Sequence record: NC_000866.4
Direction: 5' to 3' (one strand)
DNA length: 64,000 bases
DNA from: Escherichia phage T4
In this document: one piece after another, positions 5,284 through 20,845 of the stretch
Layout of the letters: the number at the start of each line of letters is the position of its first letter
Numbering within the stretch: the stretch's first letter is position 1
The notes under the pieces: generated by a model
Seen by the model: only the letters and a program-made list of their open reading frames with translations
Told to the model about the DNA's origin: nothing
The model's database searches: none
Made by a program: the position numbers and the translations under genes

Positions 5284-6414
5284 TTATGGATAGGTATAGA
5301 TGATACCAGTTTCTAAAGCAGTTTTATGAATGATGTATCCATTACGCGATTCTTGGACATCAACTTCTGGATAGTCTTTCATCATCTTCTGGAGAGTGTA
5401 ACGATGCAGGTAATATTTACTATCTGGGTCGTCAGTTTTCCAATCTTTACCTTCTTCGGTCATTTTTTGGATTTCATCCATAACCCACCAACCGCACCAG
5501 ATGTAAGCTGAGCTACGGTGTGGAAGAGGATGAACATAAGGTAATTCACCTTCTGGTTCTGGAGCAACTTTAGCCGTGACTGTTACATTACCAGTTTTGG
5601 TAACGGTTACAGGGTTATAATCTGCAGCAGTAACAGTTGCAGTAACTTCAATAGTTTGACTTCCAACAGATGAGGTATCGACAGTATATACGTTAGTTGA
5701 CCCTTCTACAGGAGAAGAATCTTTCTTCCATGAGTAAGTAATTTGTGCTTCTTCTGGAGCACCCGTAACATTAGCCGTAAATGTAGCCGAAGCATCTTGC
5801 TGAACATTAATAGAAGGAGGAGTCAATGTAACCTGTGGATTCATTGTCTTCTTATTAACCGTTAATGATACTTCATTAGAAGTAACGCTTAGTGCATCAT
5901 AATCTGTCGCGGTTACTTGGGCTACGCATTTAATTCTTTTTACTCCACTTGTAGTTGGAGTATAGCTAAATGTAGAGTTAGTTTCTCCACCAACTTGTGA
6001 ATCATCTACATACCACTGATACGTAGCAGATGCTCCATCAGGTTGAGAAGCTAAGGCAGCAGTAAATTGAACTGGGGTTCCAATCACTCCAGCCGCAGGA
6101 CTAGCAGGAGTTACGGCTAAGGTAGTCGTCTGTGTCTTATTTTTAACTGTGATAGTTGTTGTCGCTTCAGCCGTTTCCGGGCCTCCTTCAGAAAGTGTAT
6201 TTGTTGCAACTACTTTAATAGTCTTTTGACCGGCAGGTCCTTTTAGTACATAACTAAAAGTTGCTTCAGCTCCATCTTGTGGAACATTATCTACGCTCCA
6301 AGCATATGTAATAGTTCCGCCTCCAGTTTGACCACTGGGTGTAGCAGTAAACTGCTTAGTTTCATCAATAACCCCTGTAGGTGTTTTAGGAGTTATATCA
6401 ACTGTAAAAGTCAT
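5284..6414 (-). CDS. hoc: Highly immunogenic outer capsid protein Hoc
   Basis: 376-aa ORF, ATG verified; repeated Ig-like Thr/Val-rich modules; size and position match T4 Hoc. Confidence 0.92.
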   Translation of the reverse strand: MTFTVDITPKTPTGVIDETKQFTATPSGQTGGGTITYAWSVDNVPQDGAEATFSYVLKGPAGQKTIKVVATNTLSEGGPETAEATTTITVKNKTQTTTLAVTPASPAAGVIGTPVQFTAALASQPDGASATYQWYVDDSQVGGETNSTFSYTPTTSGVKRIKCVAQVTATDYDALSVTSNEVSLTVNKKTMNPQVTLTPPSINVQQDASATFTANVTGAPEEAQITYSWKKDSSPVEGSTNVYTVDTSSVGSQTIEVTATVTAADYNPVTVTKTGNVTVTAKVAPEPEGELPYVHPLPHRSSAYIWCGWWVMDEIQKMTEEGKDWKTDDPDSKYYLHRYTLQKMMKDYPEVDVQESRNGYIIHKTALETGIIYTYP

Positions 6415-6423
6415 AAGTTATCC

Positions 6424-7104
6424 TTATTTTAATGTTACGAAAGAAGAGTTGCGTGTTTCACGAATTAAAACTGATCCATCGCGATTAATGTAATAAATTA
6501 AGCTAAATAAAGTTTGGTGTGCTGACGCATGTTCAAAACTAGTTGGGTGAGATTTCCAATCAGGAGTTTCAGCAATCCATTGATAAATCCACCAAGGAAC
6601 AGTACAGAATCCTAGATTTTTTCCAATCAGTTGAAGATTCGGACTAAAGTTTTCCGGAAGAGTAAATACAGACGGCTTTTCAGATTCAATAATCTCAGCT
6701 ACAGCCTGTTCGAATTTTTCTTCAACAAAAGGAGTATCTTCAATCAAAACATCGGTATTTTCAGGAATTTTATCCGTTTCTACTACTTCAATTTTAATGT
6801 CAGATTTAATCGGAGAATCAATCAGAAGTGCTGCTTCTGGATTGACTTCTTCATCGTCATATTTTAATCCCTCTGCGGCATCAGCAGCATCAATTAAGTC
6901 TTTAATAGATAACCCATCAGTCTCTGGCATAGGTTCACTAGCGAGCTTCTGGAGGGCTTCTTCAATATCAACAACGATATTATCAAAAGATTTATTCTTT
7001 TTGACCTTTATACCAAACTGTTCAGCATATTCAGCTAATTTAGCTTTAGCTTCTTTGTTATCATCAAGAGCCTTCAGCTCTGCAATATAATCTTTATCTA
7101 TCAT
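6424..7104 (-). CDS. inh: Inh, inhibitor of prohead protease
   Basis: 226-aa acidic ORF at the T4 inh position; ATG verified. Confidence 0.8.
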   Translation of the reverse strand: MIDKDYIAELKALDDNKEAKAKLAEYAEQFGIKVKKNKSFDNIVVDIEEALQKLASEPMPETDGLSIKDLIDAADAAEGLKYDDEEVNPEAALLIDSPIKSDIKIEVVETDKIPENTDVLIEDTPFVEEKFEQAVAEIIESEKPSVFTLPENFSPNLQLIGKNLGFCTVPWWIYQWIAETPDWKSHPTSFEHASAHQTLFSLIYYINRDGSVLIRETRNSSFVTLK

Positions 7105-7153
7105 AATATTTCCTCAGTATAAATATAGATATATTTATTACTCGGAAAATAGT

Positions 7154-7771
7154 ATGTACCACTTTGTATATGAAACAACAAATCTAATAAATGGTAAAAA
7201 GTATATAGGAAAGCACTCTACTGATGACTTGAATGATGGTTACCTTGGTTCCGGTAAGGCAATTCAGCAGGCTATAAAGAAATATGGTGAAAACAATTTC
7301 TCTAGAACAATACTAAAAGAGTTTAAAACTTCCGAAGAAGCGTACATGTATGAAGAAGAAATTATAACTCCTGAACTAATAAAAAGCAAAAATTATTATA
7401 ATATGAAACCTGGTGGAATTGGTGGAATTGTTATGACTACAGATGTTATAGCAAAGATGAAAGAATCTTCCGCTAAAAGATTTGAAAACTCACCGGGCAC
7501 GGTATTAGGTAAAACTTGTTATACTAATGGAACTAAAAATATTTTTATTAAACCTGGAGAACTTGTTCCAGAAGGATTTGTAAAAGGGATGGTTCATCCT
7601 AATAGAAAGTCCAGAAAAGGATGTAAAGTCAAACCGACTACCACAGGAACTTTTTGGGTCAATAATGGCGCAATAAATAAATTAATACAACCAGACGGTA
7701 TTATTCCCGACGGATTTATTAAAGGTCGTCTCATGAAAAGAGATTCTAAAGGCAAATTTAGTAAGGCATAA
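7154..7771 (+). CDS. segE: GIY-YIG homing endonuclease SegE
   Basis: N-terminal GIY-YIG motif HFVYETTNLINGKKYIGKH; 205 aa; immediately upstream of uvsW. Confidence 0.85.
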   Translation: MYHFVYETTNLINGKKYIGKHSTDDLNDGYLGSGKAIQQAIKKYGENNFSRTILKEFKTSEEAYMYEEEIITPELIKSKNYYNMKPGGIGGIVMTTDVIAKMKESSAKRFENSPGTVLGKTCYTNGTKNIFIKPGELVPEGFVKGMVHPNRKSRKGCKVKPTTTGTFWVNNGAINKLIQPDGIIPDGFIKGRLMKRDSKGKFSKA

Positions 7772-7773
7772 TT

Positions 7774-9537
7774 ATGGATATTAAAGTACATTTTCACGAC
7801 TTCAGTCATGTACGCATCGATTGTGAAGAGAGCACGTTCCACGAATTAAGAGATTTCTTTTCGTTTGAGGCCGATGGATATAGATTTAATCCTCGCTTCA
7901 GATATGGCAACTGGGATGGACGAATCCGTCTTTTAGATTATAATCGTCTTCTTCCATTCGGCTTAGTCGGGCAAATTAAAAAATTCTGTGATAATTTTGG
8001 CTATAAAGCCTGGATTGACCCACAAATTAACGAAAAAGAAGAATTATCAAGAAAAGATTTTGATGAATGGCTTTCTAAATTAGAAATCTATTCAGGAAAT
8101 AAAAGAATTGAACCGCACTGGTATCAAAAAGATGCAGTGTTCGAAGGATTAGTTAATCGTCGTAGAATTCTTAATCTTCCAACATCTGCAGGTAAATCTT
8201 TAATTCAAGCTTTGCTTGCGCGATATTATTTGGAAAATTATGAAGGTAAAATTCTTATCATTGTTCCAACAACTGCTCTGACAACTCAGATGGCTGATGA
8301 CTTCGTCGACTATCGTTTATTCAGCCATGCAATGATAAAGAAAATTGGTGGCGGAGCATCAAAAGATGATAAATATAAAAATGATGCACCAGTCGTTGTT
8401 GGTACATGGCAAACTGTAGTAAAACAACCGAAAGAATGGTTCTCACAGTTTGGAATGATGATGAATGATGAATGCCATCTTGCTACAGGAAAAAGTATTT
8501 CATCTATCATATCAGGTTTAAATAACTGCATGTTCAAATTCGGTTTGTCTGGTTCATTACGTGATGGCAAAGCCAATATCATGCAGTATGTTGGAATGTT
8601 TGGTGAAATATTTAAACCAGTAACGACTTCTAAATTAATGGAAGATGGACAAGTAACTGAGCTAAAAATTAATAGTATTTTTCTTCGCTATCCCGATGAG
8701 TTCACTACTAAATTAAAGGGAAAAACTTACCAAGAAGAAATAAAAATTATTACTGGGCTTAGTAAAAGAAATAAATGGATCGCTAAATTAGCTATTAAGC
8801 TTGCGCAAAAAGATGAAAACGCTTTTGTCATGTTTAAACATGTATCGCATGGTAAAGCTATTTTCGATTTAATTAAAAATGAATACGATAAAGTTTATTA
8901 CGTATCAGGGGAAGTTGATACCGAAACCCGCAATATAATGAAAACCTTAGCTGAAAATGGTAAAGGAATAATTATAGTAGCTAGTTATGGTGTATTTTCT
9001 ACTGGTATTTCAGTTAAAAATCTGCATCACGTTGTTTTAGCGCACGGTGTTAAATCAAAAATCATTGTATTACAAACAATCGGTCGTGTATTACGTAAGC
9101 ATGGTTCTAAGACAATAGCAACAGTCTGGGACCTCATAGATAGCGCAGGCGTCAAGCCAAAATCTGCTAATACGAAAAAGAAATATGTTCATTTGAACTA
9201 TCTTTTAAAACACGGCATTGATCGTATTCAGCGCTACGCAGATGAAAAATTTAATTACGTAATGAAAACAGTTAATTTAATAAGCTTCGGCCCTTTGGAG
9301 AAAAAGATGTTACTAGAATTTAAACAATTTCTTTATGAAGCTTCTATTGATGAATTTATGGGTAAAATTGCCTCTTGTCAAACATTAGAAGGTTTAGAAG
9401 AACTTGAAGCTTATTATAAGAAAAGAGTCAAAGAAACTGAATTAAAAGATACTGATGACATCTCTGTGAGAGATGCTTTGGCAGGAAAAAGAGCTGAATT
9501 AGAAGATTCAGACGATGAAGTAGAAGAAAGCTTTTAA
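7774..9537 (+). CDS. uvsW: UvsW DNA/RNA helicase (SF2)
   Basis: 587-aa ORF, ATG verified; Walker A LPTSAGKS and DECH box (MMMNDECH). Confidence 0.93.
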   Translation: MDIKVHFHDFSHVRIDCEESTFHELRDFFSFEADGYRFNPRFRYGNWDGRIRLLDYNRLLPFGLVGQIKKFCDNFGYKAWIDPQINEKEELSRKDFDEWLSKLEIYSGNKRIEPHWYQKDAVFEGLVNRRRILNLPTSAGKSLIQALLARYYLENYEGKILIIVPTTALTTQMADDFVDYRLFSHAMIKKIGGGASKDDKYKNDAPVVVGTWQTVVKQPKEWFSQFGMMMNDECHLATGKSISSIISGLNNCMFKFGLSGSLRDGKANIMQYVGMFGEIFKPVTTSKLMEDGQVTELKINSIFLRYPDEFTTKLKGKTYQEEIKIITGLSKRNKWIAKLAIKLAQKDENAFVMFKHVSHGKAIFDLIKNEYDKVYYVSGEVDTETRNIMKTLAENGKGIIIVASYGVFSTGISVKNLHHVVLAHGVKSKIIVLQTIGRVLRKHGSKTIATVWDLIDSAGVKPKSANTKKKYVHLNYLLKHGIDRIQRYADEKFNYVMKTVNLISFGPLEKKMLLEFKQFLYEASIDEFMGKIASCQTLEGLEELEAYYKKRVKETELKDTDDISVRDALAGKRAELEDSDDEVEESF

Positions 9538-15755: not shown

Positions 15756-16850
15756 ATGGCAATTGTTAAAGAAATAACTGCTGATTTAATTAAAAAGTCC
15801 GGTGAGAAAATTTCAGCCGGACAGAGTACTAAATCAGAAGTAGGAACTAAAACATACACAGCCCAGTTTCCAACTGGGCGTGCTAGTGGTAATGACACTA
15901 CAGAGGACTTCCAGGTAACAGATCTATATAAGAATGGATTATTATTTACTGCATACAATATGTCATCTAGGGATTCTGGAAGTCTTAGATCGATGAGATC
16001 TAACTACTCTTCTTCATCTTCGAGTATTTTACGTACAGCTAGAAACACTATTAGTAGTACAGTATCAAAACTATCAAATGGATTAATATCAAATAATAAT
16101 TCAGGAACAATAAGTAAATCTCCTATCGCAAACATTCTTTTACCGAGATCTAAATCTGATGTTGATACATCATCACATAGATTTAATGATGTTCAAGAAA
16201 GCCTTATCAGTAGAGGCGGAGGTACTGCTACTGGTGTGCTAAGTAATATTGCTTCAACCGCAGTATTTGGGGCACTGGAAAGTATAACACAAGGTATAAT
16301 GGCTGATAATAATGAACAGATTTATACGACAGCCAGAAGTATGTATGGTGGTGCTGAAAATAGAACTAAAGTGTTTACATGGGATTTGACTCCACGTTCA
16401 ACAGAAGATTTAATGGCTATTATTAATATCTATCAATATTTTAACTATTTTTCTTATGGTGAAACGGGTAAATCTCAATATGCTGCTGAAATAAAGGGGT
16501 ATTTAGATGATTGGTATCGTTCTACGTTAATTGAACCTTTATCTCCGGAAGACGCAGCTAAAAATAAAACACTATTTGAGAAAATGACATCGAGTTTAAC
16601 TAACGTTCTAGTAGTTTCAAACCCGACAGTTTGGATGGTGAAAAACTTTGGCGCAACATCTAAGTTTGATGGAAAAACGGAAATATTTGGTCCATGTCAA
16701 ATACAGAGCATTAGATTTGATAAAACACCTAATGGTAACTTTAACGGATTAGCTATTGCTCCAAACCTCCCTAGTACATTTACTCTCGAGATTACTATGA
16801 GAGAAATTATCACGTTAAACCGTGCTTCTTTATATGCGGGGACTTTTTAA
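15756..16850 (+). CDS. 48: Baseplate-tail tube junction protein gp48
   Basis: 364-aa ORF; position match. Confidence 0.9.
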   Translation: MAIVKEITADLIKKSGEKISAGQSTKSEVGTKTYTAQFPTGRASGNDTTEDFQVTDLYKNGLLFTAYNMSSRDSGSLRSMRSNYSSSSSSILRTARNTISSTVSKLSNGLISNNNSGTISKSPIANILLPRSKSDVDTSSHRFNDVQESLISRGGGTATGVLSNIASTAVFGALESITQGIMADNNEQIYTTARSMYGGAENRTKVFTWDLTPRSTEDLMAIINIYQYFNYFSYGETGKSQYAAEIKGYLDDWYRSTLIEPLSPEDAAKNKTLFEKMTSSLTNVLVVSNPTVWMVKNFGATSKFDGKTEIFGPCQIQSIRFDKTPNGNFNGLAIAPNLPSTFTLEITMREIITLNRASLYAGTF

Positions 16851-17812
16851 TGTATTCTTTAGAGGAATTTAATAATCAAGCAATAAACGCAGATTTCCAA
16901 CGTAATAATATGTTTAGCTGCGTTTTTGCGACAACTCCATCAACTAAAAGCTCTTCGTTGATAAGTTCAATTAGCAACTTTTCTTATAATAACTTGGGCC
17001 TAAATTCAGATTGGTTAGGATTAACTCAAGGTGATATTAATCAGGGAATTACCACGCTAATTACAGCTGGCACACAAAAACTGATAAGAAAATCAGGAGT
17101 CAGTAAATATCTTATTGGTGCCATGAGTCAACGTACAGTTCAAAGTTTATTAGGCTCATTTACAGTTGGTACATATTTAATTGACTTCTTTAACATGGCA
17201 TATAACTCATCTGGATTGATGATATACTCTGTAAAAATGCCAGAGAATAGATTATCCTATGAAACTGACTGGAACTATAATTCTCCTAATATTCGTATAA
17301 CCGGAAGAGAATTAGACCCTTTGGTTATTTCATTTAGAATGGATTCAGAAGCTTGTAACTATCGTGCAATGCAAGACTGGGTTAACTCCGTTCAAGACCC
17401 AGTAACTGGACTGCGTGCTTTGCCACAAGATGTCGAGGCAGATATTCAGGTTAATCTTCATTCTCGCAATGGATTACCTCATACTGCGGTGATGTTCACG
17501 ATGCATTCAATATCAGTGAGCGCTCCTGAGTTATCATATGATGGAGATAACCAAATAACTACATTTGATGTTACTTTTGCGTACAGAGTGATGCAGGCTG
17601 GAGCAGTTGATAGGCAACGTGCGCTTGAATGGCTTGAATCTGCTGCTATAAATGGTATTCAAAGCGTTCTCGGAAATAGTGGAGGTGTTACTGGACTATC
17701 TAATTCGCTTTCACGACTTAGTAGATTAGGGGGAACTGCAGGAAGCATTTCAAACATTAATACTATGACAGGAATTGTCAATTCGCAGAGTAAAATATTA
17801 GGAGCAATATAA
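16850..17812 (+). CDS. 54: Baseplate-tail tube initiator gp54
   Basis: 320-aa ORF; position match. Confidence 0.9.
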   Translation: MYSLEEFNNQAINADFQRNNMFSCVFATTPSTKSSSLISSISNFSYNNLGLNSDWLGLTQGDINQGITTLITAGTQKLIRKSGVSKYLIGAMSQRTVQSLLGSFTVGTYLIDFFNMAYNSSGLMIYSVKMPENRLSYETDWNYNSPNIRITGRELDPLVISFRMDSEACNYRAMQDWVNSVQDPVTGLRALPQDVEADIQVNLHSRNGLPHTAVMFTMHSISVSAPELSYDGDNQITTFDVTFAYRVMQAGAVDRQRALEWLESAAINGIQSVLGNSGGVTGLSNSLSRLSRLGGTAGSISNINTMTGIVNSQSKILGAI

Positions 17813-17816
17813 CAAT

Positions 17817-17838
17817 GGGGACCGAAAGGTCCATATTT
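17817..17838. terminator. Hairpin terminator after gene 54 / alt.-3
   Basis: GGACC-gaaa-GGTCC followed by ATATTTTTATTT. Confidence 0.6.
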
Positions 17839-18129
17839 TTATTTACGGAATGAAATGAAAGCAGCAACTGAAGCAACTAAACTGTCTTCAATATAAACTT
17901 CAATTTTTACAGGAGCTTCTGACTCAAATTTACCTGTTACTACACCCTGAAAAATACTTTCAGTCTGTTCTGGCTTTGAAAAATTTTCAGAAGGAAAAAT
18001 TCCGAACTTTTTATCTGTTCCAAAAATTTTGATAAATTCATCGTAAACCGCTTCGTTAAAAGCATTATCAGCAGGAATAACGCCTTCAACTACAAGTTCT
18101 TGACCTAAAAAGCGTAAAGAAGATTTCAT
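17839..18129 (-). CDS. hypothetical protein (T4 alt.-3 position)
   Basis: 96-aa ORF with AGGA ribosome-binding site just upstream of the ATG. Confidence 0.65.
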   Translation of the reverse strand: MKSSLRFLGQELVVEGVIPADNAFNEAVYDEFIKIFGTDKKFGIFPSENFSKPEQTESIFQGVVTGKFESEAPVKIEVYIEDSLVASVAAFISFRK

Positions 18130-18154
18130 TTTGTGTTCCTCATGTTATGTTAGT

Positions 18155-18195
18155 AAGACTACTATAACACAACACGAGGGACTTGTAAACTACAT
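18155..18195 (-). promoter_or_regulatory. T4-type early promoter
   Basis: minus strand GTTTACA (-35), 17-nt spacer, TATAGT (-10). Confidence 0.6.
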
Positions 18196-18365
18196 TTTGA
18201 ACTTTTTAGTACGCGTAATAGGCATGCGTCGATTTTATACTGTTTCATTGTTTGAAGAGCAGTATCAAAAACAGCATTAATGACACCAATTGGATTTCCA
18301 CCCAAGTTTTTAAGCTTAACTAATGATAGTTTCTCATTAACACCTATCATTACGATATGCATCAT
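18162..18365 (-). CDS. Alt N-terminal paralogue fragment (T4 alt.-2 position)
   Basis: 67-aa ORF aligning to Alt residues about 64-120 (QTMKQYKIDACLLRVLKS vs QTMRQYKIDACMLRILKS). Confidence 0.6.
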   Translation of the reverse strand: MMHIVMIGVNEKLSLVKLKNLGGNPIGVINAVFDTALQTMKQYKIDACLLRVLKSSKCSLQVPRVVL

Positions 18366-18547
18366 TTTATCGCCTGGTTTAACGTTTTATTTGTATCACC
18401 GCCAGAGGTGTATGTACAAAATCTAAATCCAGGAAGTACACTTTCTTCACCGGCTTGAATAGCAAAAATTTGTGGTATTTTATGCTTAGGATTTAATGTA
18501 ACAACCGGCGCCGAAGCGCCGTCAAATAATTCTGTAATAAGTTCCAT
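18362..18547 (-). CDS. Alt N-terminal paralogue fragment (T4 alt.-1 position)
   Basis: 61-aa ORF aligning to Alt residues 1-60 (MELITELFD...PGFRFCTYTSGGDTN). Confidence 0.6.
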   Translation of the reverse strand: MELITELFDGASAPVVTLNPKHKIPQIFAIQAGEESVLPGFRFCTYTSGGDTNKTLNQAIK

Positions 18548-18550
18548 GAT

Positions 18551-20602
18551 TTATCCTTGAACGAACTTGTAAGGCATGTTTGCAATATCTATGCAAGACG
18601 CAATAATTCCAAGAGATGATTCTACTTTCTGTTTAACATTTGATGAAACAAATGATGCAAAGTCAACTCTATCTTCTATATCACCTGTCATTGTAACCAA
18701 TTCACCAGTTTCCATTAAATGGTCTCCGTCATAGATTACCGATTCGGTGAGTTCTTCTGTGGTCATAACTTCAGCTTGAATAAGCTTGTTGTTAGTTTTA
18801 ACTGTTCCATCATTGTAAGATGCATCGGTTATTTTATTAACTTTGACCATTAATCCACGTGGCAAAATGACTTCCATTTCATTTGAAGGCGCTAAACTTC
18901 CACCGGGTAAAACAACATTGACCTTATCAGCCCCAGTAATAACCCATCCAATTCCAACTAAATTATCGCTAGAATTTACAAGTCCTTCATCAGTTTTATC
19001 AATAGAAACGCTTAAACGCTTTTCGTCTGGTAAAACACCTATAGATGAATCAGTCATCCAAGTACCAAAAATATTTGGATATAATGATGTTGACACAAAG
19101 TTTCTAAAATAAAAAACTCGATTTTTTACCATTGCTTCGTATATTGAAGGTAACATTCGTTGTGAACGATACAAAGTAATACCTTTTGGTAATCGTTCAC
19201 CATTTTTAAAGGCTGAATCTAAATTATCAATAGCTTTTTCTATGTCAGATGCTGTCAAAATACTTGTACGCTCATCTGGATTATATAATCCCAAAAGAGC
19301 ATTATTTATGTCTACATATCCTGAACCTACGTATTCACGAATTCCGCGTTTTTGCGCTGGTGTGTATTTAGATGAATCTTTATTTTCGACTATAGGATGT
19401 AATGACCATCCAGCGGTAAGAGCATATCCACGTAATTCTCTTCGAATAATCTTTGTTTTTATTGCATTCCAAGAATTTTGTACTAACTCATTTGCAGCAT
19501 CTTGGTTTAAATGCGAATGTTTGTTAATATTTCTTTCAAACCAAGCACCCTTATATTTTTCTAAAGTATCATCGACGATAGAAGCAATAGTTTCTAAGGT
19601 TTTTATTGAAGTAATAGATTCTTTTCGTAATCTTTCTAAAGCTTTATTTTTTATTTCTGCGTTAATAATGGATTCTTTATCTTCAGGAATTATAGAAGCT
19701 TCTCTGAATGCCATCCCAGCTGTAACACTGCTAAGAGCATTCTCTAGTGCAAATCCTGAAGTAGAAATTACCGTTAATTCATTAGAATCAGAAATTAAAG
19801 GCGCGTCCGCTGGTTTATTTAATTCGGCCGCTGAAGCCTCAAATTTTTGAAACATTGGTGTTTCAAATCTAGAAGATTCCAATGACTGACTTTGCGCAAT
19901 TGCTCTACGGGAAATTTTAACTTTAACGATTACAGCTTGGTCAGAACGTTTATCATTTTCTTGCGCAATAGATGCTGCAATTGCCTCATTTTTAGTTACT
20001 TGAGCCCCAGTATCTTTATTGATATAAACATCACCGACCTTCGATTCAACTTTAGTAAAGAGCTCGGTACTAATTTCCGGAACTCCTGGAATGTCTTCTA
20101 GTGATACATTTTTGCGATGTATAAGAATATATGCATACTTTTTATCGTAATCCCAGAGTTCCTTAAGAAGGACGTATCTACCACCTGAACGACTACGGAT
20201 AAGTCTATCAGCAATAACTTGAATTTGTCGAGCTTGGCCAGCAGTTTTAGACTTAAGAATACGGAGCATACAGGCATCAATTTTATACTGGCGCATTGTT
20301 TGCATTGCAACAGTAAAAACTGAATTGATATAATTAATTGGGCTTGGACCAAGACCTTTTAATTTAGCAATTGAACCTTTAGCAGTTAATGTAAAAGGAA
20401 CAATATGCATCATTTTATCGCCCATCTTTAAATCACGATTAGTATCACCTCCAGATGTATAGGTACATAAACGAAAGCCTGGTTGTTCAATTGCATCATC
20501 AACATGAACTGAAAAAATTTGCGGTATTTTCTTCTTTGGATATAAGTTTGTAATTGGAAGAGTAGTATCTTCGTCAAATAATTCTGTAATAAGTTCCATC
20601 AT
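18551..20602 (-). CDS. alt: Alt ADP-ribosyltransferase (packaged with DNA, modifies host RNA polymerase)
   Basis: 683-aa ORF recognised as T4 Alt. Confidence 0.9.
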   Translation of the reverse strand: MMELITELFDEDTTLPITNLYPKKKIPQIFSVHVDDAIEQPGFRLCTYTSGGDTNRDLKMGDKMMHIVPFTLTAKGSIAKLKGLGPSPINYINSVFTVAMQTMRQYKIDACMLRILKSKTAGQARQIQVIADRLIRSRSGGRYVLLKELWDYDKKYAYILIHRKNVSLEDIPGVPEISTELFTKVESKVGDVYINKDTGAQVTKNEAIAASIAQENDKRSDQAVIVKVKISRRAIAQSQSLESSRFETPMFQKFEASAAELNKPADAPLISDSNELTVISTSGFALENALSSVTAGMAFREASIIPEDKESIINAEIKNKALERLRKESITSIKTLETIASIVDDTLEKYKGAWFERNINKHSHLNQDAANELVQNSWNAIKTKIIRRELRGYALTAGWSLHPIVENKDSSKYTPAQKRGIREYVGSGYVDINNALLGLYNPDERTSILTASDIEKAIDNLDSAFKNGERLPKGITLYRSQRMLPSIYEAMVKNRVFYFRNFVSTSLYPNIFGTWMTDSSIGVLPDEKRLSVSIDKTDEGLVNSSDNLVGIGWVITGADKVNVVLPGGSLAPSNEMEVILPRGLMVKVNKITDASYNDGTVKTNNKLIQAEVMTTEELTESVIYDGDHLMETGELVTMTGDIEDRVDFASFVSSNVKQKVESSLGIIASCIDIANMPYKFVQG

Positions 20603-20640
20603 ATCCTCTCTAGTGTTTATTCTATTCTATTTATAAAATT

Positions 20641-20658
20641 AAAGGCCCGAAGGCCTTT
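20641..20658 (-). terminator. Hairpin between alt.1 and alt
   Basis: AAAGGCC-cgaa-GGCCTTT. Confidence 0.45.
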
Positions 20659-20845
20659 AATAATCTATTGGTAAGAGAGTACGATATATTTCAAACTTTG
20701 GACCTTTTTCATAAGCATCAAATGTTTCTGTGAATTTATTATAAGCATATGCATCTATAAATTCAATCATGATTTGTGATACAGAAGTAGAAACATCTCC
20801 ACCTTCTTTTTGAGCCACGACAATTGTTTCTAAGTAAGCTTTCAT
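20657..20845 (-). CDS. hypothetical protein (T4 alt.1 position)
   Basis: 62-aa ORF overlapping gene 30 stop. Confidence 0.55.
   Translation of the reverse strand: MKAYLETIVVAQKEGGDVSTSVSQIMIEFIDAYAYNKFTETFDAYEKGPKFEIYRTLLPIDY

Follow-up and report, generated by a model that had tools for sequence, protein, structure and literature searches.

The alt.-1 and alt.-2 reading frames of Escherichia phage T4 as the probable remnant of a second, full-length alt paralogue

Two short reading frames directly downstream of alt in Escherichia phage T4, alt.-1 and alt.-2, very probably make up a single pseudogene left over from a second alt paralogue, a full-length gene for ~685 aa that carried an ADP-ribosyltransferase domain of its own. 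Our analysis covers one window, a stretch of 64,000 nucleotides that forms the final 64 kb of the T4 reference genome (NC_000866.4). Adding 104903 to a window coordinate gives the NC_000866 coordinate, in agreement with the positions of alt.-3, alt.-2 and alt.-1 in PMC9697503 Table S2. A T4 ancestor lost codons ~117–680 of the second gene through one deletion between 9-bp direct repeats (CTAAAAAGT), and afterwards a single A dropped out of an A5 run at codon 54, which split the 116 remaining N-terminal codons into two overlapping frames; both steps can be read from alignments with intact copies of the gene. The C-terminal 13 residues of Alt.-2 represent accidental read-through of the old gene's last 20 nt and of the early promoter of alt.-3, a step that is visible in the same alignments. 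Replication slippage (slipped-strand) or illegitimate recombination at the repeats may have produced the deletion. The stump is probably still transcribed with alt and may give rise to a short unstable peptide, presumably with neither selection acting on it nor a function of its own.

Both the GenBank record of T4 and a comparative study from 2006 had already identified alt.-1/alt.-2 as a gene remnant. An annotation excerpt from the T4T GenBank record states that 'alt.-1 and alt.-2 together reflect a deletion and further frame shift in the second copy of gene alt', both appear among the paralogous duplications of alt in Nolan et al. 2006 (PMC1524935), and the record of Yersinia phage fPS-2 labels its own version 'similar to N-terminal of ... 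Alt; putative pseudogene'. Added here are the exact junction with its 9-bp repeat, the site of the A5 to A4 change, the finding that the alt.-2 tail runs over the alt.-3 promoter, counts of how often the deleted allele occurs and evidence for neutral decay.

Two reading frames downstream of alt

The minus strand of the region carries, in order, gene 30 (ligase), alt.1, alt, alt.-1, alt.-2 and alt.-3, followed by a bidirectional terminator and the plus-strand genes 54, 48 and 29 (Table 1). According to the open reading frame list, alt.-1 and alt.-2 lie in different frames with an overlap of four nucleotides, as the sequence-only reading of this DNA had stated; the shared bases are ATGA at 18362–18365. 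The alt.-1 product (T4p199, UniProt P39495, NC_000866 123265–123450) reads MELITELFDGASAPVV...GGDTNKTLNQAIK over 61 aa, and that of alt.-2 (T4p198, UniProt P39494, NC_000866 123065–123268) reads MMHIVMIG...QTMKQYKIDACLLRVLKSSKCSLQVPRVVL over 67 aa. Past the deletion junction, the tail of alt.-2 consists of one codon and SKCSLQVPRVVL, and then the stop.

Table 1. Features of the alt.-1/alt.-2 locus, in window coordinates.
Feature	Position	Strand	Description
alt	18551..20599	(-)	682 aa from the annotated ATG; intact, functional ADP-ribosyltransferase gene; the ORF caller begins one ATG earlier, at 20602
Shine-Dalgarno AAGGA of alt.-1	18554..18558	(-)	6 nt before the ATG, abutting the alt stop TAA (18551-18553); putative, function predicted from sequence
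alt.-1	18362..18547	(-)	61 aa: ancestral second-alt codons 1-53, then 8 out-of-frame codons (KTLNQAIK) and TGA stop
Frameshift site	18385..18388	(-)	A4, against A5 in intact paralogues; AATAAAAACG (Sf24) to AATAAAACG (T4); ancestral codon 54
alt.-2	18162..18365	(-)	67 aa: ancestral codons 62-116 from an internal ATG ATG, then a 13-codon out-of-frame tail
Deletion junction	18201..18209	(-)	Lone surviving copy of the 9-bp direct repeat CTAAAAAGT
Ancestral second-alt stop TAG	18190..18192	(-)	Collinear with Sf24 8056-8058; now out of frame
alt.-3 early-type promoter	18161..18190	(-)	GTTTACA, 17 nt, TG-extended TATAGT; promoter scan 10/12 match with TG
alt.-3	17839..18129	(-)	96 aa, DUF5498 (PF17602, E=1.4e-64); intact; conserved 3′ flank of the deletion
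Bidirectional terminator hairpin	17819..17832		Between alt.-3 and gene 54; ends the alt/alt.-1/alt.-2/alt.-3 transcription unit; annotated terminator in relatives

The claim that the two frames together recapitulate the N-terminus of Alt holds, and the peptide strings quoted for it were exact. In BLASTP searches against the window's own Alt, alt.-1 matched Alt residues 2–63 with 35/62 identities (56%, E=1e-21) and alt.-2 matched residues 64–118 with 34/55 (62%, E=2e-21), so that residues 1–118 are covered at E ~1e-21 for each frame. The nucleotide alignment proposed as a check likewise gave a similarity far above chance, with 68.6% identity to T4 alt over 341 nt and a frameshift separating the two frames; against phage T4 genomes the region matches at 99.6%. 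No Pfam family was matched by either product in an hmmscan search. The Alt product itself contains the Pfam domain PF03496 (ADPrib_exo_Tox) at residues 374–614 (E=5.8e-36). The remnant shows neither of the features that mark a functional Alt-like ADP-ribosyltransferase gene: the PF03496 domain falls inside the deleted 1,699 bp, and in place of an open frame of ~680 codons there are 61 aa and 67 aa in two frames.

Downstream, the remnant runs into the regulatory sequences of alt.-3. The promoter of alt.-3 is a sigma-70-type match with a −35 element in the style of T4 early promoters, and the stop codon of alt.-2 (18162–18164) falls within its −10 hexamer. RNA and protein of alt.-3 are both classed as early and the RNA of alt.-1/alt.-2 as middle (PMC9697503 Table S2), consistent with alt.-3 being served by its own promoter within the alt.-2 tail. 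This also accounts for the strong conservation of the alt.-2 tail across relatives, as the tail holds the promoter and ribosome-binding site of alt.-3 and is not conserved as coding sequence. Conserved next to both the intact and the deleted alleles, alt.-3 differs in temporal class from the late gene alt upstream.

Other candidate features of the region were set aside. Plus-strand open reading frames across the remnant (18131–18280, 18280–18426 and 18357–18458) and a weak terminator-like hairpin on the same strand (18211–18229) were taken to be chance features of AT-rich antisense sequence, as they are unannotated in the records that we fetched. An Rfam scan of 17700–20800 returned a single sub-threshold chance match (IRES_APC, E=0.49) and no structured RNA that would explain the region.

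The intact paralogue, the deletion and the frameshift

Using the 386-nt region as query in a sensitive DNA search of 50,697 phage records, we found relatives of two classes. A minority match all 386 nt, while the majority match only nt 1–347, at 93–97% identity (348 nt on their side), and in this majority class the matching stretch belongs to a CDS that the records describe as an Alt-like ADP-ribosyltransferase. Shigella phage Sf24, for example, has a gene of 2,058 nt (685 aa) between alt and the alt.-3 orthologue, which starts 3 nt past the alt stop (6001–8058 of the Sf24 record; gp47, YP_009619127) and is annotated as 'distinct from ... T4 Alt'. Its ribosome-binding site is identical to the AAGGA of alt.-1. 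The same 685-aa gene is found in RB27, phiD1, KIT03, Isf-Pm2, a48, SHBML-50-1 and two IMG/VR contigs (named RB27_193 in RB27 and KIT03_192 in KIT03), and orthology and conserved position, with collinear flanks, are seen in Sf24 and eight other genomes. The intact paralogue has its own PF03496 domain at residues 416–620 (E=2e-20) and is 41% identical to T4 Alt overall, its first ~230 residues being much more alike than the rest and its catalytic half divergent.

In all, 402 phage records carry at least 80% of the 1,690-nt segment missing from T4, and the intact-type arrangement is also seen in T2. The T4-type junction is present in 88 records (89 by an independent query). Among IMG/VR viral contigs the junction sequence was found at 2 loci and the intact-paralogue protein at 5, so our population sample is drawn from GenBank phage records. 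Two oddities came up among the database records. In Escherichia phage vB_EcoM_G2540-3, which bears the deletion, the first alt is annotated as two CDS (1054–1380 and 1430 onward; span 1054–1503); possibly neither Alt paralogue survives in this phage, unless the split stems from faulty assembly. A 48-nt match of 97.9% to the alt.-2 tail and alt.-3 promoter, located at the end of a 32-kb record of Staphylococcus phage SAJK-IND (MG010123.1, 31849–31896), looks like contamination or a chimeric assembly.

Aligning the window with Sf24 places the deletion to the base. By blastn, window 18697–18201 (minus strand) aligns to Sf24 5845–6348 at 94% and window 18209–17800 to Sf24 8039–8450 at 96%, the latter collinear into alt.-3, and the two segments overlap by exactly the nine bases CTAAAAAGT. 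Intact genes carry this 9-mer twice, at nt 340–348 and at nt 2039–2047, 1,699 bp apart; the two repeats are a perfect 9/9 match in 4/9 intact copies and 8/9 in the others. The segment absent from T4 is exactly 1,699 bp, or 3 × 566 + 1, so the deletion is out of frame, and T4 still has the last 20 nt of the ancestral gene, now read out of their original frame. All 19 deletion-bearing sequences (18 relatives) have one and the same junction, which argues for a single deletion event that later spread by descent and recombination. Upstream of it, the loss of one nucleotide from the A5 run ends alt.-1 eight codons further on, so that alt.-2 begins at the internal ATG ATG (ancestral Met-62 and Met-63).

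These alignments also decide how the truncated state arose. The sequence-only reading had taken the locus to be a tandem partial duplication of alt, and a local duplication of only the 5′ part of alt, followed by divergence and decay, would account for a fragment that follows alt immediately, in the same orientation, and aligns with Alt residues 1–118 alone. However, the fragment is 94–97% identical to the 5′ end of the full-length paralogue in ~400 relatives and only ~69% identical to alt, its homology breaks off at the 9-bp repeat, which recurs 1,699 bp further along in the intact genes, and the last 20 nt and stop of the long gene are still present in T4. We give a partial duplication almost no credence. 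Collinearity with the whole paralogue in relatives identifies the locus as the remnant of an internal deletion: the ancestral duplication was full-length, and the 'partial' state comes from the deletion.

A different objection is that the split is a sequencing artefact and that a single intact frame spans the region. Probable reference errors do lie nearby (a TG/GT swap at 18498–18499, a missing CC at ~17832 and a compensated frameshift in gene 54), but all 386 nt are matched, with no indel, by 13 independent records of the T4 type (T4T, RB55, RB59 and recent resequencing among them). Because the frameshift is common to independent T4 genomes, a single intact frame is rejected, and even without the 1-nt frameshift the deletion would leave just a truncated frame of 128 codons. 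The chance that the split is artefactual is thus negligible.

The nearby differences from other records concern the reference sequence in its own right. At window 18498–18499 (alt.-1 codon 17) the reference has GTTACATTA (Thr-17), against GTTAACTTA (Asn-17) in T4T, 17 other deletion-bearing relatives and 9/9 intact paralogues. This transposition of adjacent bases occurs in the reference alone and suggests an old sequencing error, or else a change private to one strain. In the terminator hairpin, at ~17832, the window has GGGGACCGAAAGGTCC where T4T and Sf24 have GGGGACCGAAAGGTCCCC; two C's are missing and the stem is shorter, which is typical of GC compression in old Sanger reads. The product of gene 54 (gp54; 16850–17812, plus strand) is 320 aa here and 321 aa in T4T, with a compensated frameshift at ~17499–17512 (CAC--GATGCATT-C in place of CACCGGATGCATTCC, giving T-MHS for TGCIP) and an R/A difference ~40 residues later; both differences in this structural gene are probably errors of the reference sequence.

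Finally, the two frames might be joined by recoding. Slippage by −1 of Lys-tRNA on A AAA by the TGA at the ATGA overlap, or slippage at the A4 run, would yield a fusion of ~128 aa resembling the Alt N-terminus. A-rich runs are present at both places (AATAAAACG and ATAAAATGA), and phages fPS-2 and PTE-Eco15 have the un-shifted A5. Against this, neither a canonical X XXY YYZ heptamer nor a stimulatory structure is present, fPS-2 and PTE-Eco15 carry a stop at codon 6 so that the full 128-aa frame exists in no lineage, evolution of the sequence is neutral and no protein has been detected (see below). Productive recoding is accordingly a hypothesis to which we attach hardly any weight.

Decay, selection and expression of the remnant

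The 19 deletion-bearing sequences were aligned with nine intact copies in the ancestral frame. The A-run frameshift is present in 17/19 of the deletion-bearing sequences, fPS-2 and PTE-Eco15 being those without it. Codon 6 has changed from GAA to TAA in 9/19, fPS-2 and PTE-Eco15 included, leaving an 'Alt.-1' of five residues. PD112 and 235Ecol030PP have lost one more nucleotide, from a T run at codon 93, which truncates alt.-2; LH2 has a start codon changed from ATG to GTG, and F25 has lost an A at the junction, which alters the alt.-2 tail. None of these lesions occurs in any of the nine intact copies, and the complete frame is preserved in no lineage among the 19 deletion-bearing sequences.

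Substitutions follow the same division. Over codons 1–113, variable alleles among the intact copies number 30 synonymous against 2 nonsynonymous (pN/pS 0.019). For remnant-private alleles the counts are 3 synonymous and 11 nonsynonymous; these match the neutral site ratio, 73:266 (binomial p = 1.0), and differ from the counts of the intact copies (Fisher p = 1.8e-6), in a comparison of only 14 private alleles with nine intact copies that was made without a phylogeny and in which recombination could have misassigned some private alleles. Neutral substitution together with at least five independent disabling mutations indicates that selection does not act on what the stump encodes. Besides orthology with a gene that is intact in relatives, the locus shows two further marks of a pseudogene, disabling lesions and, in a small sample, a relaxed substitution pattern. 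'Pseudogenised duplicate', one of two suggestions made from the sequence alone, therefore names the right category: homology to the Alt N-terminus, the frameshift, the disabling lesions and the neutral substitutions all agree with it.

The other suggestion, a pair of small packaged proteins, is not borne out. As a functional hypothesis it would have Alt.-1 act through its MELITE propeptide as a mini internal protein or a competitor for Alt packaging, with Alt.-2 made by translational coupling. Several observations speak for it and qualify the pseudogene reading: every resequenced T4 isolate, like T4 itself, has both frames open, the parental ribosome-binding site survives in alt.-1 along with the ITE-6 motif (PMC5694885), the ATGA overlap could support translational coupling, and RNA of the locus is present during infection (PMC9697503). 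The frames themselves are not conserved, however. The Glu codon of the cleavage motif is a stop in nearly half of the deletion-bearing relatives, two others have a shortened alt.-2 and one a changed alt.-2 tail, frameshifts and a start change occur, and the private substitutions are neutral. On this evidence we judge functional small proteins to be very improbable.

Expression data point in the same direction. In time-resolved dual omics of infection, RNA was found for alt.-1 and alt.-2 and protein for neither (Class_P = NA), while Alt.-3 protein was found (PMC9697503 Table S2). Both frames are predicted to yield ordinary tryptic peptides (IPQIFAIQAGEESVLPGFR, FCTYTSGGDTNK and TLNQAIK from Alt.-1; NLGGNPIGVINAVFDTALQTMK, IDACLLR and CSLQVPR from Alt.-2), though non-detection is a weak negative, as gp17 was also missed in the same shotgun proteome (PMC9697503). 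The supplements on T4 head mass spectrometry of PMC5694885 contain no mention of Alt.-1 or Alt.-2. Given the retained AAGGA and the place of the frame within the alt–alt.-3 transcription unit, some translation of alt.-1 in T4 is plausible.

Whether such a product could be carried into the head depends on the role of the Alt N-terminus. The gp21 prohead protease trims six N-terminal residues from Alt at ITE-6 (PMC5694885) and 63 C-terminal residues at LTE-619 (PMC9026906), and Alt.-1 begins with MELITE, identical to the ITE-6 site of Alt, as a match to the (L/I)-x-E motif only. Alt is placed among the proteins with a capsid-targeting propeptide in PMC5694885, whereas PMC9958956 finds a targeting sequence of ~10 aa to be conserved only in IPII and IPIII. 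The two papers thus conflict on the premise that the Alt N-terminus mediates capsid targeting, on which the suggestion of packaged proteins rested. As a packaged protein Alt.-1 fails on conservation of both the motif and the frame, with the Glu-6 codon replaced by TAA in 9/19 sequences, and a stop at this Glu in about half of the deletion-bearing relatives argues against a retained targeting role. For T4 proper, where codon 6 is still Glu, there is a slim chance that alt.-1 is translated and that its 61-aa product enters the prohead core and is cut by gp21, making it an accidental mini internal protein; if so, the first ~50 residues of Alt would be sufficient for packaging.

Implications and comparison with the Alt paralogues

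Annotation transfer, and counts of T4 reading frames of unknown function, should take alt.-1 and alt.-2 together as a single pseudogene in place of two 'hypothetical proteins'. Laboratory T4 belongs to a minority (~88 of ~490 database genomes) without the second ADP-ribosyltransferase that most Tequatroviruses keep, and this second enzyme is presumably packaged as well. Since the second paralogue has been lost in laboratory T4, work on T4 Alt gives an incomplete picture of the proteins injected by T-even phages. We found no functional study of the second 685-aa paralogue, and its function and targets are the real question near the alt.-1/alt.-2 locus.

Set beside the second paralogue of Tequatroviruses, the T4 remnant shares the 5′ 347 nt, the ribosome-binding site and the place between alt and alt.-3. 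The paralogue is a protein of 685 aa with a PF03496 domain and is under strong purifying selection, whereas T4 retains only codons 1–116, frameshifted, and the last 20 nt. T4 Alt, for its part, is a catalytically active protein of 682 aa that is packaged at ~40 copies and processed at both ends (PMC5694885, PMC9026906). Alt and the remnant have a paralogous N-terminus, 56–62% identical over residues 1–118 and with MELITE in both, and the remnant has no counterpart to anything in Alt past residue 118.
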